A stretch of DNA of 64,000 nucleotides from Verrucomicrobiota bacterium (GTDB taxonomy: Bacteria; Verrucomicrobiota; Verrucomicrobiia; Limisphaerales; UBA8199), in assembly GCA_029974925.1 (NCBI GenBank), contig JARKQH010000168.1, forward strand, positions 888-64,887. The letters run 5' to 3'. The notes under the pieces are model-generated. The model made no database searches. It was not told the DNA's origin and was given only the letters and a program-made list of their open reading frames with translations. Shown here in pieces: positions 1-60,035 of this stretch (position 1 is the first letter of the stretch; every line of letters starts with the position of its first letter). Made by a program: the position numbers and the translations under genes.

Positions 1-314
1 AGTTTTGCCTCGGCCTCCTCCAGAGACTGTTTGGCGCGGTGAACCAGCAGTTGTTCCGCGGAGCATTCGGTCTTCAGCGTCGAGAGGCGGGCGCCAAAGA
101 GCGCCTGCCGGGCCTCTTCCAGCGCGCGGGCGCGGCGGCGAACCTGGTTCTCCCACCAGGTGCGGCGGTCGCTTTCAATCCAGTCGCGTGTGTGCAGGAC
201 CTCGGCGCTGACCTCTTCAAGCGCGGCACGGGCCTGCGCGGCATAGACCACCAACCGCGCCCGGAAGGCCTCCAGCGCTTCAACGGAAGTAACGCGCGCG
301 CGCGAGTTCATCAT
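1..314 (-). CDS. hypothetical alpha-helical protein, N-terminal part only (gene runs off the window start)
   Basis: Manual reverse translation from the ATG at 314 gives 104 stop-free codons to position 1 (MMNSRARVTSVEALEAFRARLVVYAAQARAALEE...HRAKQSLEEAEAK). The start lies 1 nt after the stop of the upstream WXG100-like ORF. It is absent from the ORF track because it has no stop inside the window. No family recognised. Confidence 0.45.
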   Translation of the reverse strand, partial: MMNSRARVTSVEALEAFRARLVVYAAQARAALEEVSAEVLHTRDWIESDRRTWWENQVRRRARALEEARQALFGARLSTLKTECSAEQLLVHRAKQSLEEAEAK

Positions 315-315
315 C

Positions 316-588
316 TCAGCGCTGGTTCAGGTACTCCTCGATGCGCTGGGCTTTGCGCAGCAGGTAGGGGGTCTGGTGGTTGGAGATTTCCACGAATTTC
401 TTGAGGGTTTTCATCGTCTGACGAAACTCCTCGGCAAACTTCGCGTGCTCCTCGTCCTGCCAGGTGTCGCCCAGCGCGGCGAACCGGGCTTGCAGCGAGG
501 CGATTTTGTCCTGGAGGTCCGTGTTGAAACGCTTGAGCTCCTCGGCAAACCGCCGCACCTGCTCGGGATCCATAATGGCCTGGGCCAT
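316..588 (-). CDS. WXG100-like small helical-hairpin protein (central W-Q-D instead of W-x-G)
   Basis: 90 aa, with the length and layout of Esx/YukE-type proteins. N-terminal MDPEQVRRFAEEL, central LGDTWQDEEHAKFAEEF, helical C-terminus. Tightly followed by another helical ORF. Confidence 0.55.
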   Translation of the reverse strand: MAQAIMDPEQVRRFAEELKRFNTDLQDKIASLQARFAALGDTWQDEEHAKFAEEFRQTMKTLKKFVEISNHQTPYLLRKAQRIEEYLNQR

Positions 589-713
589 AGACTATGCTCG
601 CTTTCCATGCTGCTGCGGCGGGATCATCCCGTCGCCGGCGGGCGAGGATGATTTCCTCGCCTCCCCAAGCCTGCCCTGTTTCGGGCGATAGCGCAACTCG
701 CGCCACGAATCGT

Positions 714-1304
714 TTACTGGTAGCTCACCGGGCCTTTGGGCCCAACCGGCTCGGGAACGCGGTTGGAAAGGGGTGGGATGCTGCGCAGATAAGCGAACAC
801 CGCCTTGAGGTCTTCATCCGAAAGCGCTTTGAGGCTTCGCCATGGCATGGGGGGAAGGATGTCGCGGCCGTCCCCCATGTGTTTTCCGGTTCGCATGGCC
901 TTGCGGAACATCTCCCAGGTCCAGATCCCCATGCCGGTGTTGGTGTCGGGAGTCAGATTCGAGGCGTAGCTGATGCCCCAAGGGCCGGTCCAGGCGGTCA
1001 TGCCGGCGGTGGCGGCAAACCACGGACCCGCCTTCAGCTCGGGGGGCGGCAATTCCACCGATTCGGGGTGGCCGGAGAGCATTCGACTCAGGTCGGGCTG
1101 CGGCCCCTGGTCGGTCATTTTCAACGGGGTGTGGCAATCATTGCACCCGCCGTAGTCCACCAGGTATTTCCCCCGCGCGATGCGCGCTGTTTCCGAGCGG
1201 GACGGGGAGTGGGCTGCCCCAATCAGAAGCACAACCGGCGCGGCACACAAGGTCATGAGCACAACACTTTTCATGGTTTTCACACTTTGGTTTTTCGTTT
1301 TCAT
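714..1304 (-). CDS. secreted monoheme c-type cytochrome
   Basis: One CXXCH motif (CNDCH) after a signal-like MKSVVLMTLCAAPVVLLIGAA. A distal PPMPW methionine is a ligand candidate. Start taken at MKTKNQ (1304); 1274 or 1340 are also possible. Confidence 0.8.
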   Translation of the reverse strand: MKTKNQSVKTMKSVVLMTLCAAPVVLLIGAAHSPSRSETARIARGKYLVDYGGCNDCHTPLKMTDQGPQPDLSRMLSGHPESVELPPPELKAGPWFAATAGMTAWTGPWGISYASNLTPDTNTGMGIWTWEMFRKAMRTGKHMGDGRDILPPMPWRSLKALSDEDLKAVFAYLRSIPPLSNRVPEPVGPKGPVSYQ

Positions 1305-1379
1305 GCCCTGTTGGTTACTGCGTTTCCCCCCAGGGAACAATGGACCGAAAGGTCCATCTCGAGCCGGGAACTACCCGCT

Positions 1380-51267: not shown

Positions 51268-54200
51268 TCAGGGCGCAATTCGGATTCGATAATAGCGCGC
51301 CGGGTTGGTGGGCGCGGCGGTGTCGGTGTAGGTGTCGGTGAATACCTGGGTCGAGGCAACCCCCGGCGGCGCCGGGTCCATCTCGTTGGTTAAGGGGCGC
51401 GTCACGTCCTTGAAACTGCCGGTGAAGTTCCCGTTCGTGTCCGAATTGGAGACTTGGATGCGGTACCGCGTGCCCCCTGCCGAGGCCCACGCCAGATTGA
51501 CCCAGCCATTGGTGAGGCGTTCCAGGCTCAAGATGCGAAAAGCCGAGGCGGCATTCGTTGGGTTGGTGTTCGCCCGATATTCTTCGTAATTGCTCTGTCC
51601 GTCCTGATCTTCATCCCCCGCCGGGTCGGTGATGCCATAAGCGGCTTCCCATGCATCCGGCAGGCCGTTGGTATTATCATCTGGCGGGGCAATGATCGCC
51701 AGATTCAGCGTGGCAATCGAACTGGTGGCCTGGCCGTCAGTGGCAGCGAACGTGAATCGGTCCGTGCCCCGGAAACCGTGGGCAGGGTGGTAGGTGACCG
51801 TGCCCGCCTCGGGCACAAAATCACGCAGCAGTCCCTGGGTGGTCGGCGCGCGGATTTGGAACGTCAGGGCATCGCCGTTGGGGTCCGAGGCGGTCAGCGT
51901 CAGGTTGGTGGGTGCATCGCCGAAGATCGTGCGGCTCAGGTTCACCACGGTCGGCGGGTTGTTGGACTGTCCCGTGCGAAACCGCCAGACGGGGCTGGTG
52001 GCGGTCTGGCCACTGCCATCGGTCACGGTGACAAACCACTCGTAAGACTTGCCGGCTTTCAAGCCGGGCCAAACGCAACTGCTCACACTGCCCGGCTGCA
52101 ACCCGGCCTCCGTGCCCAGGACAACGAAGTTCGTGTCCGGCGGAATCCGGCCATCGGCTTGCAGGTTGTAGGGGAACGAAAACTCGCTATCCTCGTCCGC
52201 CTCGTATTGACGCAGCCAGGGGGAGTAGGTTTCGACCCGGACGAGGTTGTTGCTGGGAGAGAAGGTCATGATGCGCAGCAGGCCCTGCCCGCCGTTGTCG
52301 TAAAACTGATAGTCGGAAATCAGGGAGTGAACCGTGTTTCCAGCAAAGGTATCCTTGCGCCAGCCTTCGCCGCTGACATGGCCGCCCAGCATGAGGAACA
52401 GGTTGGTGTGCCCTTTCAAGGCGTGGTAGATGGCGCTGGCCTGCGCGCTCAGGGTGGTGGGCGTTTGCGCGCCCCCCAGGTAGTGGGTCACGACAATGGC
52501 GCGGCGGTGGGCGTTGGTGCGGAGCACCTCGCTGCCCCAGGCGAGCACCGCCGGATTGGCGTTCGTGTCATACTCGAAATACAACACGATGAAGTCCAGG
52601 CCGCTGGCGCTGAAGAAGTCGAAGTGGTTGTTGTTATTGGTGCCGTAATGGCCGCCGTAATACGACCGGCCCGCGAAACGCGACACGCCGAAGTAGGTGT
52701 TGTAGTAGAGGGTCGTGCCATTGGGATCGCCATTGGGTTCCTGGTCATGATTGCCGACCGCCACGCCATAGGGAATGCCATCCGGCAGTTGCGTGCGGTT
52801 GGGGTTCTCGAGGCGGTACATCGCGTTGGTGGCATTGCGCCACTGTGTGAGATTGGGCTGCCCCTGATAAATGTCCCCGTCGTTGACGATATCGCCGAGG
52901 TTGGACACGTAAGCAATGTTGCGCGCCACGCGGTTGGTGATGATCCATTCGGTTTGGGCGATGAACATCTCCTTGGTGCCGCCATATTTCTCCGCGGCGT
53001 AGTTCTGGGTGTCGGGTAGCAGGACAATCGAGAAATCCGGCGCCGGGTAGGGGACAAACACCTCGCGGCCATAAAACCTGGCCGTCAGGTTGCCCGGAAC
53101 GTGGTTGGTGACCAGCACCTGCAGAGCGGTTGACACCCCGGCATTCGGCGTGTTGTTCGTGGGCGAAATCAAGTGGGCTCGGGCGGGAACCAGCAGCGCT
53201 GTCACGTTGGCCGGATCCAGCCCATGATACGCCGGGTCGGCGCTTACCGCCGGCGAGAGGACCAGCATGTACGGCAGAACCTCGGTCGAGGGATTGTTCT
53301 GGCCGGTCACCGTTACCGTATGCGGCACGTTCCACTCATGAGGTCTGAAGGTCAGGGTGGACGGGCTGGGAATGCCGCGGCCAGGTTGGCTGCTGCTGAC
53401 CGCGACGGTGACGTTCGTAGCAGGGCGGGAATGGAGCACCACGCTGAAAGTCGCCGTCCCGCCATAGGCGGCAGTCACCAGGTTGTTCGTGGGAGTGACC
53501 GTGAAGCCGGGGGACGGCGCGGGGATGAAGACAAACGAGGCCACCGGTTCGTTGTCCGGCGTCTGCAAGCCGTTTCCGGGGGTGTCGCGGGACTGGATTT
53601 CCCAGCCGTCCCCGGTGATTTGATAGCTCAGGATATTATCACCGTTCCATGCGCCGCCGCCCTCGGGCGAGAGAATCAGCACGCCATTGGTGGGCGAACG
53701 GCCGGGAATGCGCAAGTCCCACCTTCCCGGGCCGAGATTGGTGACGGTGAATTGCGGGCTGGCGCCGCTGAACAGGTCAATGCTTCCGTCGCCCCGGAAG
53801 CGCCCCGAGATAAGGGCCGTGTTCGTCCGCGGAATGAAGACAAACGCAACCGGGTCCTGCTCGTAACTGGAGTAGGCAGTCTGGGCATTGTCACGGACGA
53901 AAACGTTCCAGGTGCCGTCGTTGGTGTTAACTTGAGACAAGGCGAAATTGTTCTCGTCTTTGGCGCCGCTCACCAGCAGCACCCCGCTGGTCCGCGAGTC
54001 AATGCCGTGGCTCCGGAGGTCCACGACCGAGCGGCCCGCCGCCACGCCCCGGAAGTGCGTGCCCAGCACCAGACCCGGCGAGCCGGTGAAAAGGTCGTTT
54101 GTTCCGCCGTTGACGCCGGCCGAGTTGCGCGCGAACCCGCCAAGATACCGGTCGTAGGGAAACCATGCCGCCGCCACGTTCACGTTATACTCAATCGCAT

Positions 54201-54945
54201 TTCCCGCCCCGCCTTCCGTCGCAAGAAACGTCACGATCCGATGCGCGCCGCTGGCGTTGGTCTCGAACGCGGAGATGGGGTAGCCGTTTGATCCAAAGTT
54301 GTCGCGGCCGTTTTCGGTCACCGAAGTCATGACCACCCCCCGCTGCGCATCTTCGACGGACTCTGTGCCCACGCCCACGCGAAAGCTGTAGTCGCCGCGG
54401 TTGTAGGAAATCAGTTGAAAATTGTTGATGCTGAGGGTCTGGATCACCTCGGCGTTGTTGTTGGTTTCAACGTCCGAGACCTGATTCACTTTCAGCATGC
54501 CGGCCGCCACGCCATGATGAACCGGTTCCGCAAGGGCTGATGAGGCAACCAGGAGCAAAACGGCCAGAGCGGAAGCCACGCCAATCGCGGTCGTTGCCGC
54601 CGTGAATGCCTGCCCGGCGGCGGCTGGAGACCCATCCCGCGACGGTTGGGCAGCACGGACATTTCTGTCCGCCCGCTTTCGGCGACTCCTGCCTTCCAGA
54701 CGGACAAGAATGTCCGCGCTCCGACGGAGGATGCGACGCGTGGTGAGCGGCGATGATGGGGCGGCCGCCACGTCCGGGACCGGGGTTGTTTCAAACGCAG
54801 GAGAAATACGCATCGGAGGATTGGCTGGCCCGCCACCCCGGCGGCGGTGGCGGCTCATTCGTGCAAGTTCGCCTTGGGGCGCCAAGGGCCCGGAAAAAAG
54901 CGGGACGGCGACTCCGCCGTCCCGCTTCGAAACACCATAAGTCAA
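51268..54945 (-). CDS. giant secreted protein: shared N-module, Calx-beta/cadherin-like repeat, calcineurin-like metallophosphoesterase core, Ig-like domain, TSP3-like acidic linker, YYRI tail
   Basis: Signal-like TAIGVASALAVLLLVASSALA. Metallophosphoesterase motifs LPDTQNY, GDIVNDGD, GNHD, VVTHY and GGHVSGEG. Linker DEDQDGQSNYEEYRANTNPTN. Ends ARYYRIRIAP. The true start is uncertain because the signal peptide begins at about aa 115 of the maximal ORF. Confidence 0.8.
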   Translation of the reverse strand: MTYGVSKRDGGVAVPLFSGPLAPQGELARMSRHRRRGGGPANPPMRISPAFETTPVPDVAAAPSSPLTTRRILRRSADILVRLEGRSRRKRADRNVRAAQPSRDGSPAAAGQAFTAATTAIGVASALAVLLLVASSALAEPVHHGVAAGMLKVNQVSDVETNNNAEVIQTLSINNFQLISYNRGDYSFRVGVGTESVEDAQRGVVMTSVTENGRDNFGSNGYPISAFETNASGAHRIVTFLATEGGAGNAIEYNVNVAAAWFPYDRYLGGFARNSAGVNGGTNDLFTGSPGLVLGTHFRGVAAGRSVVDLRSHGIDSRTSGVLLVSGAKDENNFALSQVNTNDGTWNVFVRDNAQTAYSSYEQDPVAFVFIPRTNTALISGRFRGDGSIDLFSGASPQFTVTNLGPGRWDLRIPGRSPTNGVLILSPEGGGAWNGDNILSYQITGDGWEIQSRDTPGNGLQTPDNEPVASFVFIPAPSPGFTVTPTNNLVTAAYGGTATFSVVLHSRPATNVTVAVSSSQPGRGIPSPSTLTFRPHEWNVPHTVTVTGQNNPSTEVLPYMLVLSPAVSADPAYHGLDPANVTALLVPARAHLISPTNNTPNAGVSTALQVLVTNHVPGNLTARFYGREVFVPYPAPDFSIVLLPDTQNYAAEKYGGTKEMFIAQTEWIITNRVARNIAYVSNLGDIVNDGDIYQGQPNLTQWRNATNAMYRLENPNRTQLPDGIPYGVAVGNHDQEPNGDPNGTTLYYNTYFGVSRFAGRSYYGGHYGTNNNNHFDFFSASGLDFIVLYFEYDTNANPAVLAWGSEVLRTNAHRRAIVVTHYLGGAQTPTTLSAQASAIYHALKGHTNLFLMLGGHVSGEGWRKDTFAGNTVHSLISDYQFYDNGGQGLLRIMTFSPSNNLVRVETYSPWLRQYEADEDSEFSFPYNLQADGRIPPDTNFVVLGTEAGLQPGSVSSCVWPGLKAGKSYEWFVTVTDGSGQTATSPVWRFRTGQSNNPPTVVNLSRTIFGDAPTNLTLTASDPNGDALTFQIRAPTTQGLLRDFVPEAGTVTYHPAHGFRGTDRFTFAATDGQATSSIATLNLAIIAPPDDNTNGLPDAWEAAYGITDPAGDEDQDGQSNYEEYRANTNPTNAASAFRILSLERLTNGWVNLAWASAGGTRYRIQVSNSDTNGNFTGSFKDVTRPLTNEMDPAPPGVASTQVFTDTYTDTAAPTNPARYYRIRIAP

Positions 54946-54957
54946 GCGCCAGCCGGC

Positions 54958-57900
54958 TCAGGGCTCACGAACGCGGTAGAACGCGGCGTTGGGCAGCGGC
55001 GCATTGTCGGTGAACGTGGCGATGCCGCCTTCCGGAACGGCCACGGTGCCCAGTTCCGTCCAACCCGCCCCGAGCGCCGGGGCGCGCAGCACCGTGTAGG
55101 TCTTGCCGACCTCGGCGGCGAACTTGACCTGCACGCTGGTCGGGCCGACCACCGGCGGCAGCATCCGGATCGCCGTGTAGTAGATCACCAACTTCGGTCG
55201 TGCATCGAGCGAGCTGTACTCCGCCGTCGCAATGCCCCAGCCATCGCCGCCATACGGCCACGGCAGGATGACCCAGCCGTAATTGGGCGCTCCGTTGGCC
55301 CAAAGTTGCACATCGGCCGTCATGTCGAATGTCTCGGAGCCGCTGGCCACGTTCGGAGTCAGGGACGGATTGCCGGCAGTGGCCGAAGCCGCTGCCACGG
55401 CTTCGACGCCATCGGCTTGAATCCCTTCGACAAAGAAACTCCAAGTATTGGTATCCTGCCACGGGATCAGCATACGATGGAATGTGCCGCCATCCCCCGG
55501 CCCGGCAGCCGTCCGGCTGAACAGGTGAAGCACAGCCGCCTGAATCTTGGCGCCGTAAGGCACCTGGCCGGCACCGGGACCGAAGATGCCGTCAAACCGG
55601 AACAACACATGTTCCGCGTCCTCCAGGCCGCTGGTGACCTCGAAATCAGGAAACACATGCTCGATGGCGGAGTACTCCGTGTCGGGGGTCCCTTCGCGAA
55701 TGCGGGTGTCCTTGGCGCCGGTGTAGCCGTTTTCGCCCTGCCGGAAGCTCGCCTCGATCAGGCCCGCCGGAATCCACTTGACGACCAGCCGCGGCCGGAA
55801 GGTCACGTTGGTGTGTTCGCACGGACTGAACGCCGTGGCGTTGTTGTTGTCCACCCAGCTTGGCATCACCCAGCCGTAGTTGGGTTCGCCGTTGACCCAG
55901 GCTTGCACATCCGGCAACACCCCCACGCGCATGATTCCGGTTTGCGTGGTGCCGTAGCCCGAACCTGCCCCCGTGCCCATTTGGGAGTAATAGGCGCTCT
56001 TGGCTTCCACGTCATCAAGCTGCACGCCATCCCCGATGCTCTCATACGTCACCGAATCGGCGTCCCAGTCAATCAGCATGCGGTGCAGCGGACTGCCCAC
56101 TCCCGTATCCGTGATGTTGAGATACAAGTCCGCTTCAATCACCGTCGCCCCGGGCGGGATTTGTCCCGGGTTGGTCCCGATAATATCGTCAAACCGCAGC
56201 AACCCTTCACGCGGGATTTCCGTCGCGGTGCGATTGGCCAGTTGAATCCCATTGGCCGGAGAGCTTCCCGCGGGCAGCGGCGTCGAATAGGACGTGATCC
56301 ACACCTCGCAATCCTTCGCGCCGGTATAAACACCAAAGCCGCCGTCCTTGCCCTGCTGGAAGTCACAGACATGCACCAGCGACAGCTCGATCTGCTTGCT
56401 CGCGGCAACCGTGCCGCCGTCGCCATCCGCAAGCGTAACGGTGACGGTGCGCGGATCCATCGAGGGGGTGCTGCTGACGCTGCGGAAGGTGATGTTCCGC
56501 AACAGCGCCTGGGCGGCCTCCGGCGTGGCCGAAACGTTGAGGCTGACCACCAACGGGCTGGTCCCGACTCCGCCGCTGAACGTCCCGATCGTGACGCCGC
56601 CGTAAGTGACGTTGTTGCCACTCACGCCAATCTGGCCAAATTCCGTCCCCGTGTTGCGAATCTCCAACCGGTCATTGCTGGTGCCGTTGGCCGTCAGCGC
56701 CACCGTGAGGGAGCCGCCGTCGTAATCGGTGGTGTCCGGATCGCTGATCGTAGCCAGGCCGTCAATGCCAATGCCCGGCCAGCCAATCCCGTAAACCAGG
56801 GTGCCCGAAGGCAGGGTCAGCACCGGCTCATTGTCCAGCGTCGTCGCGCTGAGTTTCGGCGTCAGCGCCGCATAGGCGGCATCCGTCGAGCTCACCGTGC
56901 CATTCAACGTGTAGGAGACGCCGCCATCGGCGACCAAATCGTCAACCGCGGTCACCGTGAAGCTTTGCGGGACGTTCCAGTTCGCCGGCGTGAACGTCCG
57001 CGAGGCCGGCGTCACCGTTCCCTCGGTGGGATCGCTCGAAGTGAAACTGACAGTCACATCCGCCGCCGGTTGCGAGTTCAATACCGCGGTGAAATTCGCC
57101 GTCGTCCCGGGTTCGCTCACCGTCACCCCGGCAAACGGGCTCAGAGTGATGCCCGGAACATCGTTGTCCAGGTTCACCACCGAGACATCCAGTGCGTTGA
57201 GGCCATTGTAGGCCGGATCCGAGCTGACGGCGGCCGCCGTCACAATCGGGTAGGTCACATTCCCATCCGGAACCGGATCATCCACTCCCGTCACGGTCAC
57301 CGTTTGCGGGAGGTAGTAATCCAGCATGGTGAAGGTGAGGCTCGACGGCGACACGGTGCCCTCGGTGGTGTCGCTTGACGACAGCGCGATCGTCACGTCC
57401 TCCATTGGCTGGGTGTTGAGCACCACGGTGAAGGTGGCGGTCCCCCCGGCCTCCGTCGTCGTCAGGCTGTTGGCGCTGAGGGTGATGCCCGCTTCGTTGT
57501 CGGCGTTGAGCGCGCCGACATCCTGCGGGTCCAGGCCGTTGAATCGCGGGTCGGCGCTGGTGGCTGGCGACAGCACGATCGTGTAGGCCACCTGCCCGTC
57601 GCTGTCGAAGTCGTCCATCCCATACACCGTGTTGGTCTGCGGCTCCCACCAGTTTTCCGGCGTAAAGGTCATGGTGGCCAGTTCCACCGTGCCTTCGGTT
57701 GGATCGCTCGAGCTCACGTTGATCGTGACATCCGCCGTCGGCTTCGTGTTGAGCGACACCGAGAAAGTCGCAAAGCCGCCTGCCTCCGAGGTTTGCAGGT
57801 TGGCCGACGGGGCGACATTGAACCCCGGGCCTGGCGCCGGAATGAACACGAACGAGATGGCGGGCTCGGTGATGATCACCCCGTCAACGATCTTATAGGG

Positions 57901-59103
57901 GGTCTGCCGGCCGTTGCTCGGCGTGTCCCGCGATTCAATCAGCCAGCCCAGGCCGTCATCGGTCATCTGGTAGTTGACAATGTTGTCGAGGTTGTATTGC
58001 CCGCCTCCCTCCGGCGAGATGATCAGCACGCCGTTGGTCGCCGCATAGTTCTTCATCTTGAGCAGCCACTGGCCGACCTTCACCTGTTCCACGGTGAATT
58101 GAGGCTCGGCGCCGCTGTAAATGATAATGCTGCCATCGCCGTTGAAGCGGCCGGAAACCACCGAGGTGTCCGTCCGCGGAATAAAGACAAAAGCCACCGG
58201 GTCCTGCTCGTAGCTGCTCGCGCTCGAGGTGGCGGCATCATGGATGTAAATCGTCCACGTGCCATCCTCGTTGGCTTGCGAGAGCGCGAAGTTCCCTTCG
58301 TCCTTGCCATGATTCACCAGCAGCACCCCGTCGGTCTGCGAATTGATCCCCAGCGACCGCAAATCGAGGAGCGACTTGCCTTGGTCCTGCACCCAACCCC
58401 CGGCGGCGGCCAGCTCGTTGGACACCCCCAGATGAATGAAATGCGTCCCGTAAACAATCTGCGGCGACGCAATCAAAAAATCGTTCGAGCCGCCGTTGAC
58501 GCGGTTCACATTCCGCGCCAGCCCGCCCAGATAGCGGCTGTACGGAAACCAGGCTCCCGCCACATTCACGTTGTACTCGATGGTGTTGCCCGCGCTGAAT
58601 GCATTGCCATACGTGGGATTGTTGCTCCACCGCGAAGCGTGGGTGCAGATGCGGTAGGGAATCGAGTCATGGATGAAACTGTGGGCATACGGGGAGTTCG
58701 TCGGCATCGGCGTCCAGTTGGTCCGGCCGTTCTCCGCCACGCACGAGATCAGAATGCCGTTGGTGATGTCGTCCGCCGCCGTCTCACCAATCTGCACGTA
58801 ATAATCGCCCGTGTTCCAGGTCGGCACGCCGTTGGCCAGGTCGGCTTTCACCGGCCGAAAATCGTTGATCGTGATCAGCGGAAACACATTCAAATTGGTG
58901 TTGGAAGCGTCATTGGGCACCATCTGCTCGACTTTGAGCAGGCCGGCGGAGATGCCGTGGGTGACTTGCTGGGCTTGGGCCAGGGACAGCCCGAAAGCCA
59001 GCAGCGCCATCCCCAGCAAGGCCGCCACTCCCCGCCAGGAATTCACACGCGTTGTTTTGCCTCCTTTGAGGCCCAATCGTCGGATGCAGGTTTGTGTCTT
59101 CAT
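54958..59103 (-). CDS. giant secreted protein: shared N-module, 3 Calx-beta/cadherin-like repeats, 2 DNRLRE-like modules, FYRV tail
   Basis: Signal VAALLGMALLAFGLSLAQA. Repeats of T.EAGGTATF.V.LN.QP..DVT....SSD.TEGTV.P..LTFT..NW..PQ..TV. Two modules with LLRFD/VLFRFD, HRMLI.W and PNYGWV. Ends AAFYRVREP. Confidence 0.85.
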   Translation of the reverse strand: MKTQTCIRRLGLKGGKTTRVNSWRGVAALLGMALLAFGLSLAQAQQVTHGISAGLLKVEQMVPNDASNTNLNVFPLITINDFRPVKADLANGVPTWNTGDYYVQIGETAADDITNGILISCVAENGRTNWTPMPTNSPYAHSFIHDSIPYRICTHASRWSNNPTYGNAFSAGNTIEYNVNVAGAWFPYSRYLGGLARNVNRVNGGSNDFLIASPQIVYGTHFIHLGVSNELAAAGGWVQDQGKSLLDLRSLGINSQTDGVLLVNHGKDEGNFALSQANEDGTWTIYIHDAATSSASSYEQDPVAFVFIPRTDTSVVSGRFNGDGSIIIYSGAEPQFTVEQVKVGQWLLKMKNYAATNGVLIISPEGGGQYNLDNIVNYQMTDDGLGWLIESRDTPSNGRQTPYKIVDGVIITEPAISFVFIPAPGPGFNVAPSANLQTSEAGGFATFSVSLNTKPTADVTINVSSSDPTEGTVELATMTFTPENWWEPQTNTVYGMDDFDSDGQVAYTIVLSPATSADPRFNGLDPQDVGALNADNEAGITLSANSLTTTEAGGTATFTVVLNTQPMEDVTIALSSSDTTEGTVSPSSLTFTMLDYYLPQTVTVTGVDDPVPDGNVTYPIVTAAAVSSDPAYNGLNALDVSVVNLDNDVPGITLSPFAGVTVSEPGTTANFTAVLNSQPAADVTVSFTSSDPTEGTVTPASRTFTPANWNVPQSFTVTAVDDLVADGGVSYTLNGTVSSTDAAYAALTPKLSATTLDNEPVLTLPSGTLVYGIGWPGIGIDGLATISDPDTTDYDGGSLTVALTANGTSNDRLEIRNTGTEFGQIGVSGNNVTYGGVTIGTFSGGVGTSPLVVSLNVSATPEAAQALLRNITFRSVSSTPSMDPRTVTVTLADGDGGTVAASKQIELSLVHVCDFQQGKDGGFGVYTGAKDCEVWITSYSTPLPAGSSPANGIQLANRTATEIPREGLLRFDDIIGTNPGQIPPGATVIEADLYLNITDTGVGSPLHRMLIDWDADSVTYESIGDGVQLDDVEAKSAYYSQMGTGAGSGYGTTQTGIMRVGVLPDVQAWVNGEPNYGWVMPSWVDNNNATAFSPCEHTNVTFRPRLVVKWIPAGLIEASFRQGENGYTGAKDTRIREGTPDTEYSAIEHVFPDFEVTSGLEDAEHVLFRFDGIFGPGAGQVPYGAKIQAAVLHLFSRTAAGPGDGGTFHRMLIPWQDTNTWSFFVEGIQADGVEAVAAASATAGNPSLTPNVASGSETFDMTADVQLWANGAPNYGWVILPWPYGGDGWGIATAEYSSLDARPKLVIYYTAIRMLPPVVGPTSVQVKFAAEVGKTYTVLRAPALGAGWTELGTVAVPEGGIATFTDNAPLPNAAFYRVREP
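56824..57828 (-). repeat. three tandem ~110-aa Calx-beta/cadherin-like coding repeats
   Basis: aa ~441-775 of the 1396-aa track ORF. The repeated consensus is visible by eye. Confidence 0.7.
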
Positions 59104-59166
59104 TTTTGTTGGTTTTACGGTTAAGGTGCTGTGATTGGAAACTGACAAAAATCGCGCTCTCGCGTC

Positions 59167-59988
59167 TCAAGGCATGCCTGGCTGGCGCGCCGAATCATGC
59201 GCCAGGTTCCACACGTGCATGAAGCGCTTCTGCGTTACCCACTCGGCGTGACCGTCGCAAAACACAAAGTTCTGGCCCTCGTTCCCATGGTTGTCGGTCT
59301 TGCTGTCCGGCCAGTTGTTGATGTCCTTCGGGTCTATCGTGGTCACCGTGTCATCGGCGTCCGTCAACAGGAAGATTTGCGACGGCCCGGGCTTGGTCCC
59401 CAGCGCCAGCGAATAGTTGTAAATCACAAAAGTCGCCACCGTGGACTCTTTCTTCTTTGTCGCCACGGCGGTCCCTCCGGAACGGTCGGTGAAATTCCCA
59501 AAACATTCATAGCTGGTGCCTGGCGCGTCCGGCCCGGCCCCGTTGTTGCAGAGGTCACGAAGCGTCTCCCCGTTCCACTTGGCCGTCATGTTCGTCCGAA
59601 TCAGGTTCCGCGTGCTCGGACACAAGTAGCTGCCTTGGGATTTAACGTAGGTCGGCCACAACCAGGTCAGGTCATCATCCGAACTCGACCGGTCGGTTTT
59701 GCCCCCAGCCGGAATATTTCCCACTTCGGGAGCCCACCACGTCGGCCCGCAATAGTTGCCTTGCGAGTCGTCCGCGTACATCTGGCTGCCCAAGCCCAGT
59801 TGCTTGAGATTGTTCAGGCAGCCAATCCGCTTGGCGCGGTTCTTGGCTCGGGCCAGCGCAGGCAGCAGCATGGCAGCCAAAATGGCGATGATCGCAATGA
59901 CCACGAGCAGTTCAATGAGAGTGAATCCGGAGCGACGTTTCGGCTTGGGGGAGTGGAGCATAAGAGAGCAAGAAGATTTCATCATCAT
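59167..59988 (-). CDS. prepilin-type N-terminal cleavage/methylation domain protein, DUF1559 (H-X9-DG-like) pseudopilin
   Basis: [25 protein letters not shown] leader with Glu+5. C-terminal [19 protein letters not shown] (the H-to-DG spacing is 10 here). Start is one of four ATGs between 59982 and 60006. Confidence 0.9.
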
Positions 59989-60035
59989 GTTAGTGGCTGA
60001 AATCATTTTTTAGTGTAGCGCGTTAACGCACCAAC

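Follow-up and report, generated by a model that had tools for sequence, protein, structure and literature searches.

Two giant genes lie next to each other on the minus strand of a 64,000-nucleotide stretch of contig JARKQH010000168.1 (assembly GCA_029974925.1) from a Verrucomicrobiota bacterium, the stretch that we analyzed as a whole and refer to here as the window. Directly after the signal peptide, each of these open reading frames (ORFs), termed ORF A and ORF B, encodes one copy of an all-beta module composed of three units, and a prepilin-like gene precedes ORF A (Table 1). An original prediction, made from the sequence of the window, had singled out the module, and the coordinates it gave for both copies are in frame. 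Our analysis indicates that the module represents a domain family that had not been annotated before; it does not amount to a new type of biological system. Judging by the architecture of the proteins that carry it, we suggest that it serves as a new extracellular ligand-binding head, a function to which we assign a probability of about one half.

Table 1. Coordinates of the module-bearing genes, their parts and the adjacent prepilin-like gene within the window.
Feature	Position (nt)	Residues (aa)	Strand	Basis or remark
ORF A	54958-59148		(-)	1396 aa
Start (ATG, probable) and signal peptide of A	58972-59103	ATG at aa 16	(-)	Read from the translation; ends ...SLAQA directly ahead of the module
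Module copy A	57832-58965	62-439	(-)	All-beta triplicated domain of ~340-375 aa; BLASTP to the B copy
Unit 1 of A	58534-58959	64-205 (HGISAG...AWFPYSR)	(-)	Model strands and hhalign
Unit 2 of A	58171-58533	206-326 (YLGG...FVFIPRT)	(-)	hhalign to unit 3
Unit 3 of A	57832-58170	327-439 (DTSVVSGRF...FVFIPAP)	(-)	Folds alone in AlphaFold2
Calx-beta-like repeats of A	56812-57831	440-779	(-)	Three repeats of ~100 aa, directly after the module
Duplicated ~200-aa domain of A	55177-56406	915-1324	(-)	Copies at aa 915-1130 and 1133-1324
C-terminal tail of A	54958-55170		(-)	Beta-rich; ends ...FYRVREP
ORF B	51268-54945		(-)	1225 aa
Arg-/Pro-rich extension of B	54589-54945		(-)	~120 residues of open frame
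Terminator-like hairpin and T-run	54904-54918			Just past the stop of A
Signal-peptide hydrophobic core of B	54529-54588		(-)	AIGVASALAVLLLVASSALA; directly ahead of the module; read from the translation
Module copy B	53512-54519	143-478	(-)	BLASTP to the A copy
Unit 1 of B	54148-54516		(-)	
Unit 2 of B	53824-54147		(-)	
Unit 3 of B	53515-53823		(-)	
Calx-beta-like repeat of B	53194-53511	479-584	(-)	One repeat, directly after the module
Calcineurin-like metallophosphoesterase domain of B	52066-53028	640-960	(-)	Catalytic cargo fused to the module
C-terminal tail of B	51268-51540		(-)	Beta-rich; ends ...YYRIRIAP
Prepilin-type N_methyl + DUF1559 gene	59167-60006		(-)	Pfam N_methyl E 1.8e-10; SBP_bac_10/DUF1559 E 6.4e-5

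The two copies are clearly related. The original claim that they align colinearly through seven near-identical blocks is borne out by BLASTP, which joins residues 63-438 of A to residues 143-478 of B in a single colinear high-scoring segment pair with 187 identities in 385 positions (49%), 63% positives and an E-value of 2e-110, and all seven blocks can be found in it. The blocks deviate from the description only in a one-residue shift of the G of GKDE, which reads GAKDE in B, and in a one-residue insertion or deletion before DGTW. The similarity runs on into the first ~100-aa repeat on the C-terminal side of the module. A tblastn search with the module revealed no third copy in the window.

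The original prediction also described a sub-pattern that recurs three times within each copy. For its assessment, the module was split into units at the three [AF][WV]F[IP][PY] strands, and the units were compared profile against profile with hhalign, with 40 column shuffles as a control. Units 2 and 3 match each other with a probability of 88% in an alignment of 33 sequences (E 2.8e-6, 73 columns) and of 88.6% in an alignment of 133 sequences (E 2.6e-6, 70 columns), and their register, GVLLV..KNE.N..SQ..DGTW.V..D...EQDPVAFVFIP, is the one originally described. With the larger alignment, the score of this pair was 37.7 versus 12.4±2.3 for the shuffles, and that of units 1 and 3 was 21.9 versus 11.9±2.5; no shuffle reached either value. 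The comparison of units 1 and 2 scored 15.4 versus 11.7±2.1, a value reached by 3 of the 40 shuffles and not significant alone. At the level of sequence, the duplication that relates units 2 and 3 can be regarded as secure. Unit 1, the most diverged of the three and the carrier of lineage-specific insertions, is weakly supported by its sequence as a third copy in the same register, with additional support from the predicted structure described below. The threefold sub-pattern is thus present but uneven: units 2 and 3 are clearly homologous, whereas unit 1 has diverged to the point that its similarity to unit 2 is not significant.

Unit 1 also contains a conserved N-R-G-D-Y motif, located in family consensus columns 42-46 and present in unit 1 of ORF B, in which R and D are conserved in at least 80% of 133 copies. 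The motif includes an RGD tripeptide, reads NTGDY in ORF A, and is probably structural.

The AlphaFold2 model of the module, computed from the 33-sequence alignment, is all-beta over its 407 residues, with about eight strands per unit, a predicted local distance difference test (pLDDT) score of 85.3 and a predicted template modeling (pTM) score of 0.88; the stretches of low confidence coincide with loop insertions specific to A. The order of strands is common to all units and consists of x[YW]xVxI, GVLLxx, two more strands, and [AF][WV]F[IP][PY]. In unit 1 of A, the strands occupy positions 21-29, 40-48, 69-74, 85-91, 109-114, 119-125 and 150-156 of the model, while unit 3 retains its fold when modeled alone (pLDDT 90.6, pTM 0.84, 9-10 strands). 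A pTM of 0.88 over this length implies that the units keep fixed relative positions within one compact body, in which we infer a pseudo-threefold packing. The earlier picture of three tandem beta-sandwich-like units is supported, as the threefold repeat appears in the predicted all-beta structure, with the caveat that in the model the units look like one rigid body, not loose tandem beads.

The claim that the module matches no known family agreed with all the searches performed. Pfam gave no match on the module in the two window proteins, in seven diverse members and in 39 further members of the family, nor at a permissive threshold of E≤10 in 33 members. Similarly, no NCBIfam or PHROGs match fell on the module of the window proteins or of the relatives scanned, and forms that carry a PEP-CTERM anchor were likewise without a family at the cut-off. 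Pfam and NCBIfam matches in module proteins fall on flanking domains only; for instance, those to Calx-beta (PF03160) are confined, in relatives, to the ~100-aa repeats that follow the module, which itself has no match to this family. Searches of the PDB by sequence (phmmer, single sequence) and by profile (hmmsearch, 33 sequences) yielded no match at E≤10.

Carbohydrate-binding modules (CBMs) and lectins with a beta-sandwich, such as the LamG/ConA-like and galactose-binding-like types, resemble the module in being accessory domains attached to extracellular hydrolases through Ig-like linkers, and LamG_3 even occurs in the same proteins. However, an obligate triplicated unit of ~340 aa is not a feature of known CBMs. 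Membership of a curated CBM or lectin family was not supported, since Pfam reported no such match on the module, even at E≤10, and the Foldseek matches of unit 3 to cohesin, ChBD and glycoside hydrolase accessory domains had E>0.1 and probabilities of at most 0.13. The flocculation-associated PEP-CTERM protein PepA was also considered; like the relative P0116, it is a small exosortase-dependent surface protein. Its model floc_PepA (NF033554) matched, weakly, residues 254-397 of P0116, the only one of the seven proteins scanned to give a match, with an E-value of 7.6e-6 and 25.9 bits against a cut-off of 80. The match spans unit 3 and the sorting tail, and is probably driven by the C-terminal FxFxF strand together with the PEP-CTERM tail; the candidate was set aside.

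Comparisons of structure led to a similar outcome for solved proteins. Foldseek found nothing in the PDB at E≤1e-3, either for the whole module or for unit 3 alone. The best match of the whole module was 4zch (4zch_A; E 0.035, probability 0.18, template modeling [TM] score 0.26), followed by assorted jelly-roll capsids with E-values around 1, and the best match of unit 3 had an E-value of 0.16 and a probability of 0.10. The 4zch entry is an engineered single-chain APRIL-BAFF-BAFF, one of the TNF/C1q-like jelly-roll trimers, and conceptually it resembles the module in having three beta-sandwich lobes in one compact chain. The superposition is not significant, however, and no TNF or C1q entry appears among the top 50 matches of unit 3; a TNF/C1q-like (pseudo)trimer was therefore rejected and represents an analogy at most. 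A literature search for single-chain pseudo-trimeric jelly rolls returned nothing relevant.

The only confident structural neighbors of the module come from BFVD. The whole module matches a cyanophage tail fiber (E 5e-4, probability 0.99, TM 0.31), and many single-unit matches cover ~106-126 columns with probabilities of 0.97-1.0 and root-mean-square deviations of 2.7-5 Å. Their targets are small uncharacterized proteins (110-190 aa) of cyanophages and giant viruses and phage tail proteins, several of them annotated as tail-fiber or tail proteins, such as the tail fiber of Synechococcus phage ACG-2014f. These tail-associated domains are all-beta, terminal and extracellular, as is the module; they differ from it in showing no sequence similarity and in the whole-module TM score of only 0.31. 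A tblastn search of 50,697 phage records with the module gave no match, and the resemblance is therefore structural only. Tail fibers are receptor-binding organelles, and together with the tail-protein neighbors this was counted in favor of a binding head. In its predicted structure, the unit resembles an uncharacterized viral tail-associated beta-sandwich and nothing characterized, and the head could turn out to be a single-chain pseudo-trimeric beta fold of a new type, without a relative among solved structures. Neither profile nor structure searches produced a confident match to a characterized family, for example of lectins or CBMs, which had been named as one of the results that would overturn the prediction.

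The module belongs to a large family. While a word-indexed search recovered only 38 relatives, a profile search among 1.84 billion representatives gave 461 matches at E≤1e-30 and 2396 at E≤1e-3; these counts are too high, since the profile ends in a Calx-beta-like tail of ~90 residues that also attracts matches. The family comprises several hundred clusters at 50% identity, and the module proper is present in 166 of the 180 proteins retrieved. A genome scan with eight closer sequences as the query identified 106 relatives in Verrucomicrobiota (Limisphaerales, Pedosphaera and subdivision 3; Luteolibacter, Prosthecobacter and Brevifollis; Akkermansiaceae) and Planctomycetota (Pirellulaceae, Anatilimnocola and Phycisphaeraceae). 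Cultivable carriers among them are Luteolibacter algae KCTC 22040, Brevifollis gellanilyticus NBRC 108608 and Anatilimnocola sp. NA78. Outside these two phyla, genome matches were limited to a few bins whose labels look wrong. The loci L022, L028 (labeled Bifidobacteriaceae), L031 and L034 (labeled Akkermansia muciniphila) carry module genes like those of Limisphaerales-type loci, and L022, L028 and L034 also carry prepilin-like genes; their taxonomic labels look wrong or contaminated.

The tandem pair of an A-like gene (~1400 aa) and a B-like gene (~1000-1150 aa) is conserved in many Limisphaerales-like metagenome-assembled genomes (MAGs), and the MAG contig L003 shares 96% identity with the window. 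In two further loci (L001 and L002, ENA ERZ25039503), the A-like and B-like genes are broken into three or four consecutive ORFs on the same strand, likely as a result of frameshift errors and not of real gene fission. Such splitting accounts for the short length, only 400-600 aa, of many homologues in the databases.

A hidden Markov model (HMM) of the module has 339 columns, and its motifs are, in order, NGRDN ... E.N.NVA.AWFPY in unit 1, GVLLV..KNE.N.ALSQ ... EQDPVAFVFIP, and GVLIISPEGG...N.DNIVSYQ ... SRD ... SFVFIP. It is matched from end to end (positions 2-338) by both window copies and by about 100 copies in 75 loci, and the three units therefore almost always travel together. Of all 235 domain matches, 157 are full length, and the rest are mostly pieces of diverged or truncated copies. 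In five proteins (P0051, P0077, P0085, P0119 and P0130), extra matches at positions ~174-338, corresponding to units 2 and 3, follow a full module; such matches may stem from diverged copies in which unit 1 has become undetectable, or from genuine two-unit variants.

The placement and the partners of the module offer clues to its function. The originally noted position, directly behind the signal peptide, is confirmed in both window proteins and in most of the family: in 143 of 166 proteins, the first copy begins within 130 aa. A single copy is most common, and some proteins have two to four; in P0039, modules are arrayed alternately with Calx-beta-like domains, and minimal forms consist of a signal peptide, one or two modules and a PEP-CTERM anchor (P0116, P0117 and L068). 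The partner domains, whose survey had been proposed with the prediction, fall into two sets. The first consists of mutually unrelated phosphoesterase families: Metallophos, the purple-acid-phosphatase N-terminal domain, PF04185 (phospholipase C/acid phosphatase) with the phospholipase C (PLC) C-terminal domain, and choice_anch_I with LTD and 5'-nucleotidase C. The second includes binding, stalk and repeat domains, namely LamG_3, Big_7, Big_9, Calx-beta, PATR, Chlam_PMP, beta-helix and RTX repeats. Arrays that alternate with Calx-beta-like domains and module-only PEP-CTERM proteins are architectures typical of binding heads.

The same architectures bear on other roles for an N-terminal module. 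A purely N-terminal secretion signal, comparable to the TPS domain, was set aside in view of the two to four internal copies and the module-only PEP-CTERM proteins. Another idea is that the module binds an envelope polymer of the producing cell and thereby keeps exoenzymes on its surface, which would make it a functional analogue of the triple S-layer homology (SLH) module of Gram-positive S-layer proteins and exoenzymes. The latter is helical, has ~55 aa per repeat, and binds a pyruvylated secondary cell-wall polymer. Both modules are threefold, are located at the N-terminus directly after the signal peptide and are joined to very diverse cargos, and a putative ligand site conserved in two phyla would fit such a role. 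On the other hand, our module is all-beta and unrelated to SLH in sequence or fold, the PEP-CTERM anchor of the module-only proteins would make a second anchor redundant, and the tandem arrays of two to four modules with stalk spacers look like multivalent binders facing outward. We consider retention at the envelope improbable.

Within the window, both modules follow signal peptides that were read from the translations. The signal peptide of A, as read from its translation, has a positively charged n-region, a hydrophobic stretch and an A-x-A site, and the ATG listed in Table 1 is its probable start. The modules begin 3-5 residues past the end of the signal peptides (...SLAQA|QQVTHG in A and ...SSALA|EPVHHG in B). 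The open frame of B extends upstream of its signal-peptide core into the Arg-/Pro-rich extension, within which lie the terminator-like hairpin and T-run; because of both features, the true start of B is probably further downstream, e.g., the ATG at 54858. Hairpin counts around positions 54589-54945 are not above chance.

The Calx-beta-like repeats of A are similar to each other (internal BLASTP E-values of 7e-27 and 3e-25) and to the single repeat of B (E 5e-28), and homologous repeats elsewhere in the family match Pfam Calx-beta, weakly or partially. The metallophosphoesterase domain of B is 48% identical (E 6e-92) to a segment of a Luteolibacter algae protein (L062) that matches Pfam Metallophos (PF00149), and the motifs GDxxxDGD, GNHD and GGH can be read in its sequence. 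ORF A has no Pfam or NCBIfam match over its whole length. Its duplicated ~200-aa domain, whose two copies are 32% identical (E 4e-22), has no Pfam match either; the relative L048 shows a weak, sub-threshold Disaggr_repeat match, maybe in the equivalent region. Both giants end in a beta-rich tail of ~70-90 aa, between which BLASTP finds no similarity, and the consensus of 39 family proteins (alignment A4) likewise ends in YRxxxx. The tail may be a shared sorting or packing domain.

Taken together, a binding head could be built and used as follows. The module would have arisen by triplication of a ~110-residue beta-sandwich unit, and the three units would pack into a rigid three-lobed all-beta body. 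Located at the mature N-terminus, it would lie at the distal end of surface-located or secreted proteins of great length, whose remaining part would consist of a stalk of Ig-like or Calx-beta domains and a variable “business” part. Conserved loops are found in matching places of the units, after the GVLLxS strand (NGRDN, KNExN and EGGxxxNxDN) and near the last strands (ExNxN, EQDP and SRD), and are candidates for three equivalent, possibly Ca2+-dependent, sites. Each lobe would supply such loops, rich in Asp, Asn, Glu, Arg and Trp, to recognize a ligand that is polymeric or exposed on a surface; the most plausible candidates would be a glycan or another polymer that is phosphorylated or anionic, possibly in conjunction with Ca2+. 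In this way, the fused phosphoesterase of ORF B, or the adhesin-like array of ORF A, would be brought to its target.

Several observations weigh against a binding head. Polar loop residues are very strongly conserved over two phyla, a pattern seen more typically at a structural or metal site, or where a conserved protein partner binds, than at a lectin site that diversifies. The linkage to one DUF1559 subfamily, described below, points to a protein partner that a binding head does not need. The BFVD neighbors are uncharacterized predicted structures with no functional annotation of their own, and the largest count of relatives is inflated, as noted above.

The conserved loops also enter into a role other than binding, in which the module would serve as a rigid structural cap, help the long stalk to fold as a nucleus or intramolecular chaperone, or have a new type of enzymatic activity. 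No family match constrains its function, and the conserved acidic and amide residues would be equally compatible with a catalytic or metal center. Nevertheless, the module is recurrently fused to catalytic domains that are already complete, and there are surface proteins made up of the module only; both observations speak against a mere cap. As for an enzyme, no catalytic motif or enzyme-like fold was detected, and three repeated equivalent loop clusters would be unusual for a single active site. We regard a non-binding role as improbable.

The linkage just mentioned concerns the prepilin-like gene upstream of ORF A, and it is the basis for a different partner of the module. According to this alternative, the module would bind the co-encoded ~250-aa DUF1559 prepilin-like protein, and the giant proteins would be shown on, or exported with the aid of, a pilin-like fiber or pseudopilus, either as tip-associated cargo or with the DUF1559 protein acting as a cargo-specific pseudopilin. 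The gene ends 63 bp upstream of the ATG of A, lies on the same strand and is not separated from it by any terminator-like site; it is the only N_methyl+DUF1559 ORF in the window. A prepilin-like ORF adjoins module genes in 28 of the 75 loci (among L003-L056, and L068), in 27 cases on the strand of the module gene. Within 1.2 kb of module genes, such ORFs number 1.82 per 10 kb, versus 0.30 per 10 kb in the remaining flanks, although many of the 75 loci are orthologous and these counts are not independent.

At least four arrangements were observed, in which the prepilin-like gene precedes A, lies between A and B, follows the gene of a two-module protein of 2040 aa or, in a Phycisphaeraceae MAG, follows that of a two-module protein with PEP-CTERM. 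Moreover, the adjacent copies form a distinct subfamily, with 164-513 bits to the window copy versus 45-83 bits for most non-adjacent copies, and polar loops that are highly conserved across phyla would fit a conserved protein partner. Conversely, no Verrucomicrobiaceae locus (L057-L073) has an adjacent prepilin-like gene, and internal or multiple copies, as well as self-anchored module-only PEP-CTERM proteins, do not fit easily with a signal used purely for docking or secretion. The module and the DUF1559 subfamily might constitute a previously unrecognized surface-display or secretion pair of the Planctomycetes-Verrucomicrobia-Chlamydiae (PVC) group, with the head docking onto, or being pushed out by, a pilin-like fiber; we consider this unlikely, and a head that binds an external ligand remains our preferred interpretation. 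DUF1559 is present in 74 copies in R. baltica (PMC2754498) and in 68 copies in P. limnophila (PMC10632474). If the pairing were true, it would provide the first functional handle on DUF1559, which is among the largest paralogous families with no known function in Planctomycetes.

These findings describe a large domain family that is invisible to Pfam, NCBIfam and the PDB. It stands at the head of many of the largest proteins secreted by Verrucomicrobiota and Planctomycetota, which abound in soils, lakes and the ocean and break down complex polymers. The family is of some wider interest on account of its lack of a solved structural neighbor, which makes the fold a good target for structural genomics, and of its linkage to one DUF1559 subfamily, which offers a testable way into a long-standing family with no known function. 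Knowledge of the ligand of the head would help to explain how extracellular phosphatases, nucleotidases and phospholipase-C-type enzymes are targeted, and hence how phosphorus is scavenged, and would also illuminate the adhesin-like giants of these bacteria.

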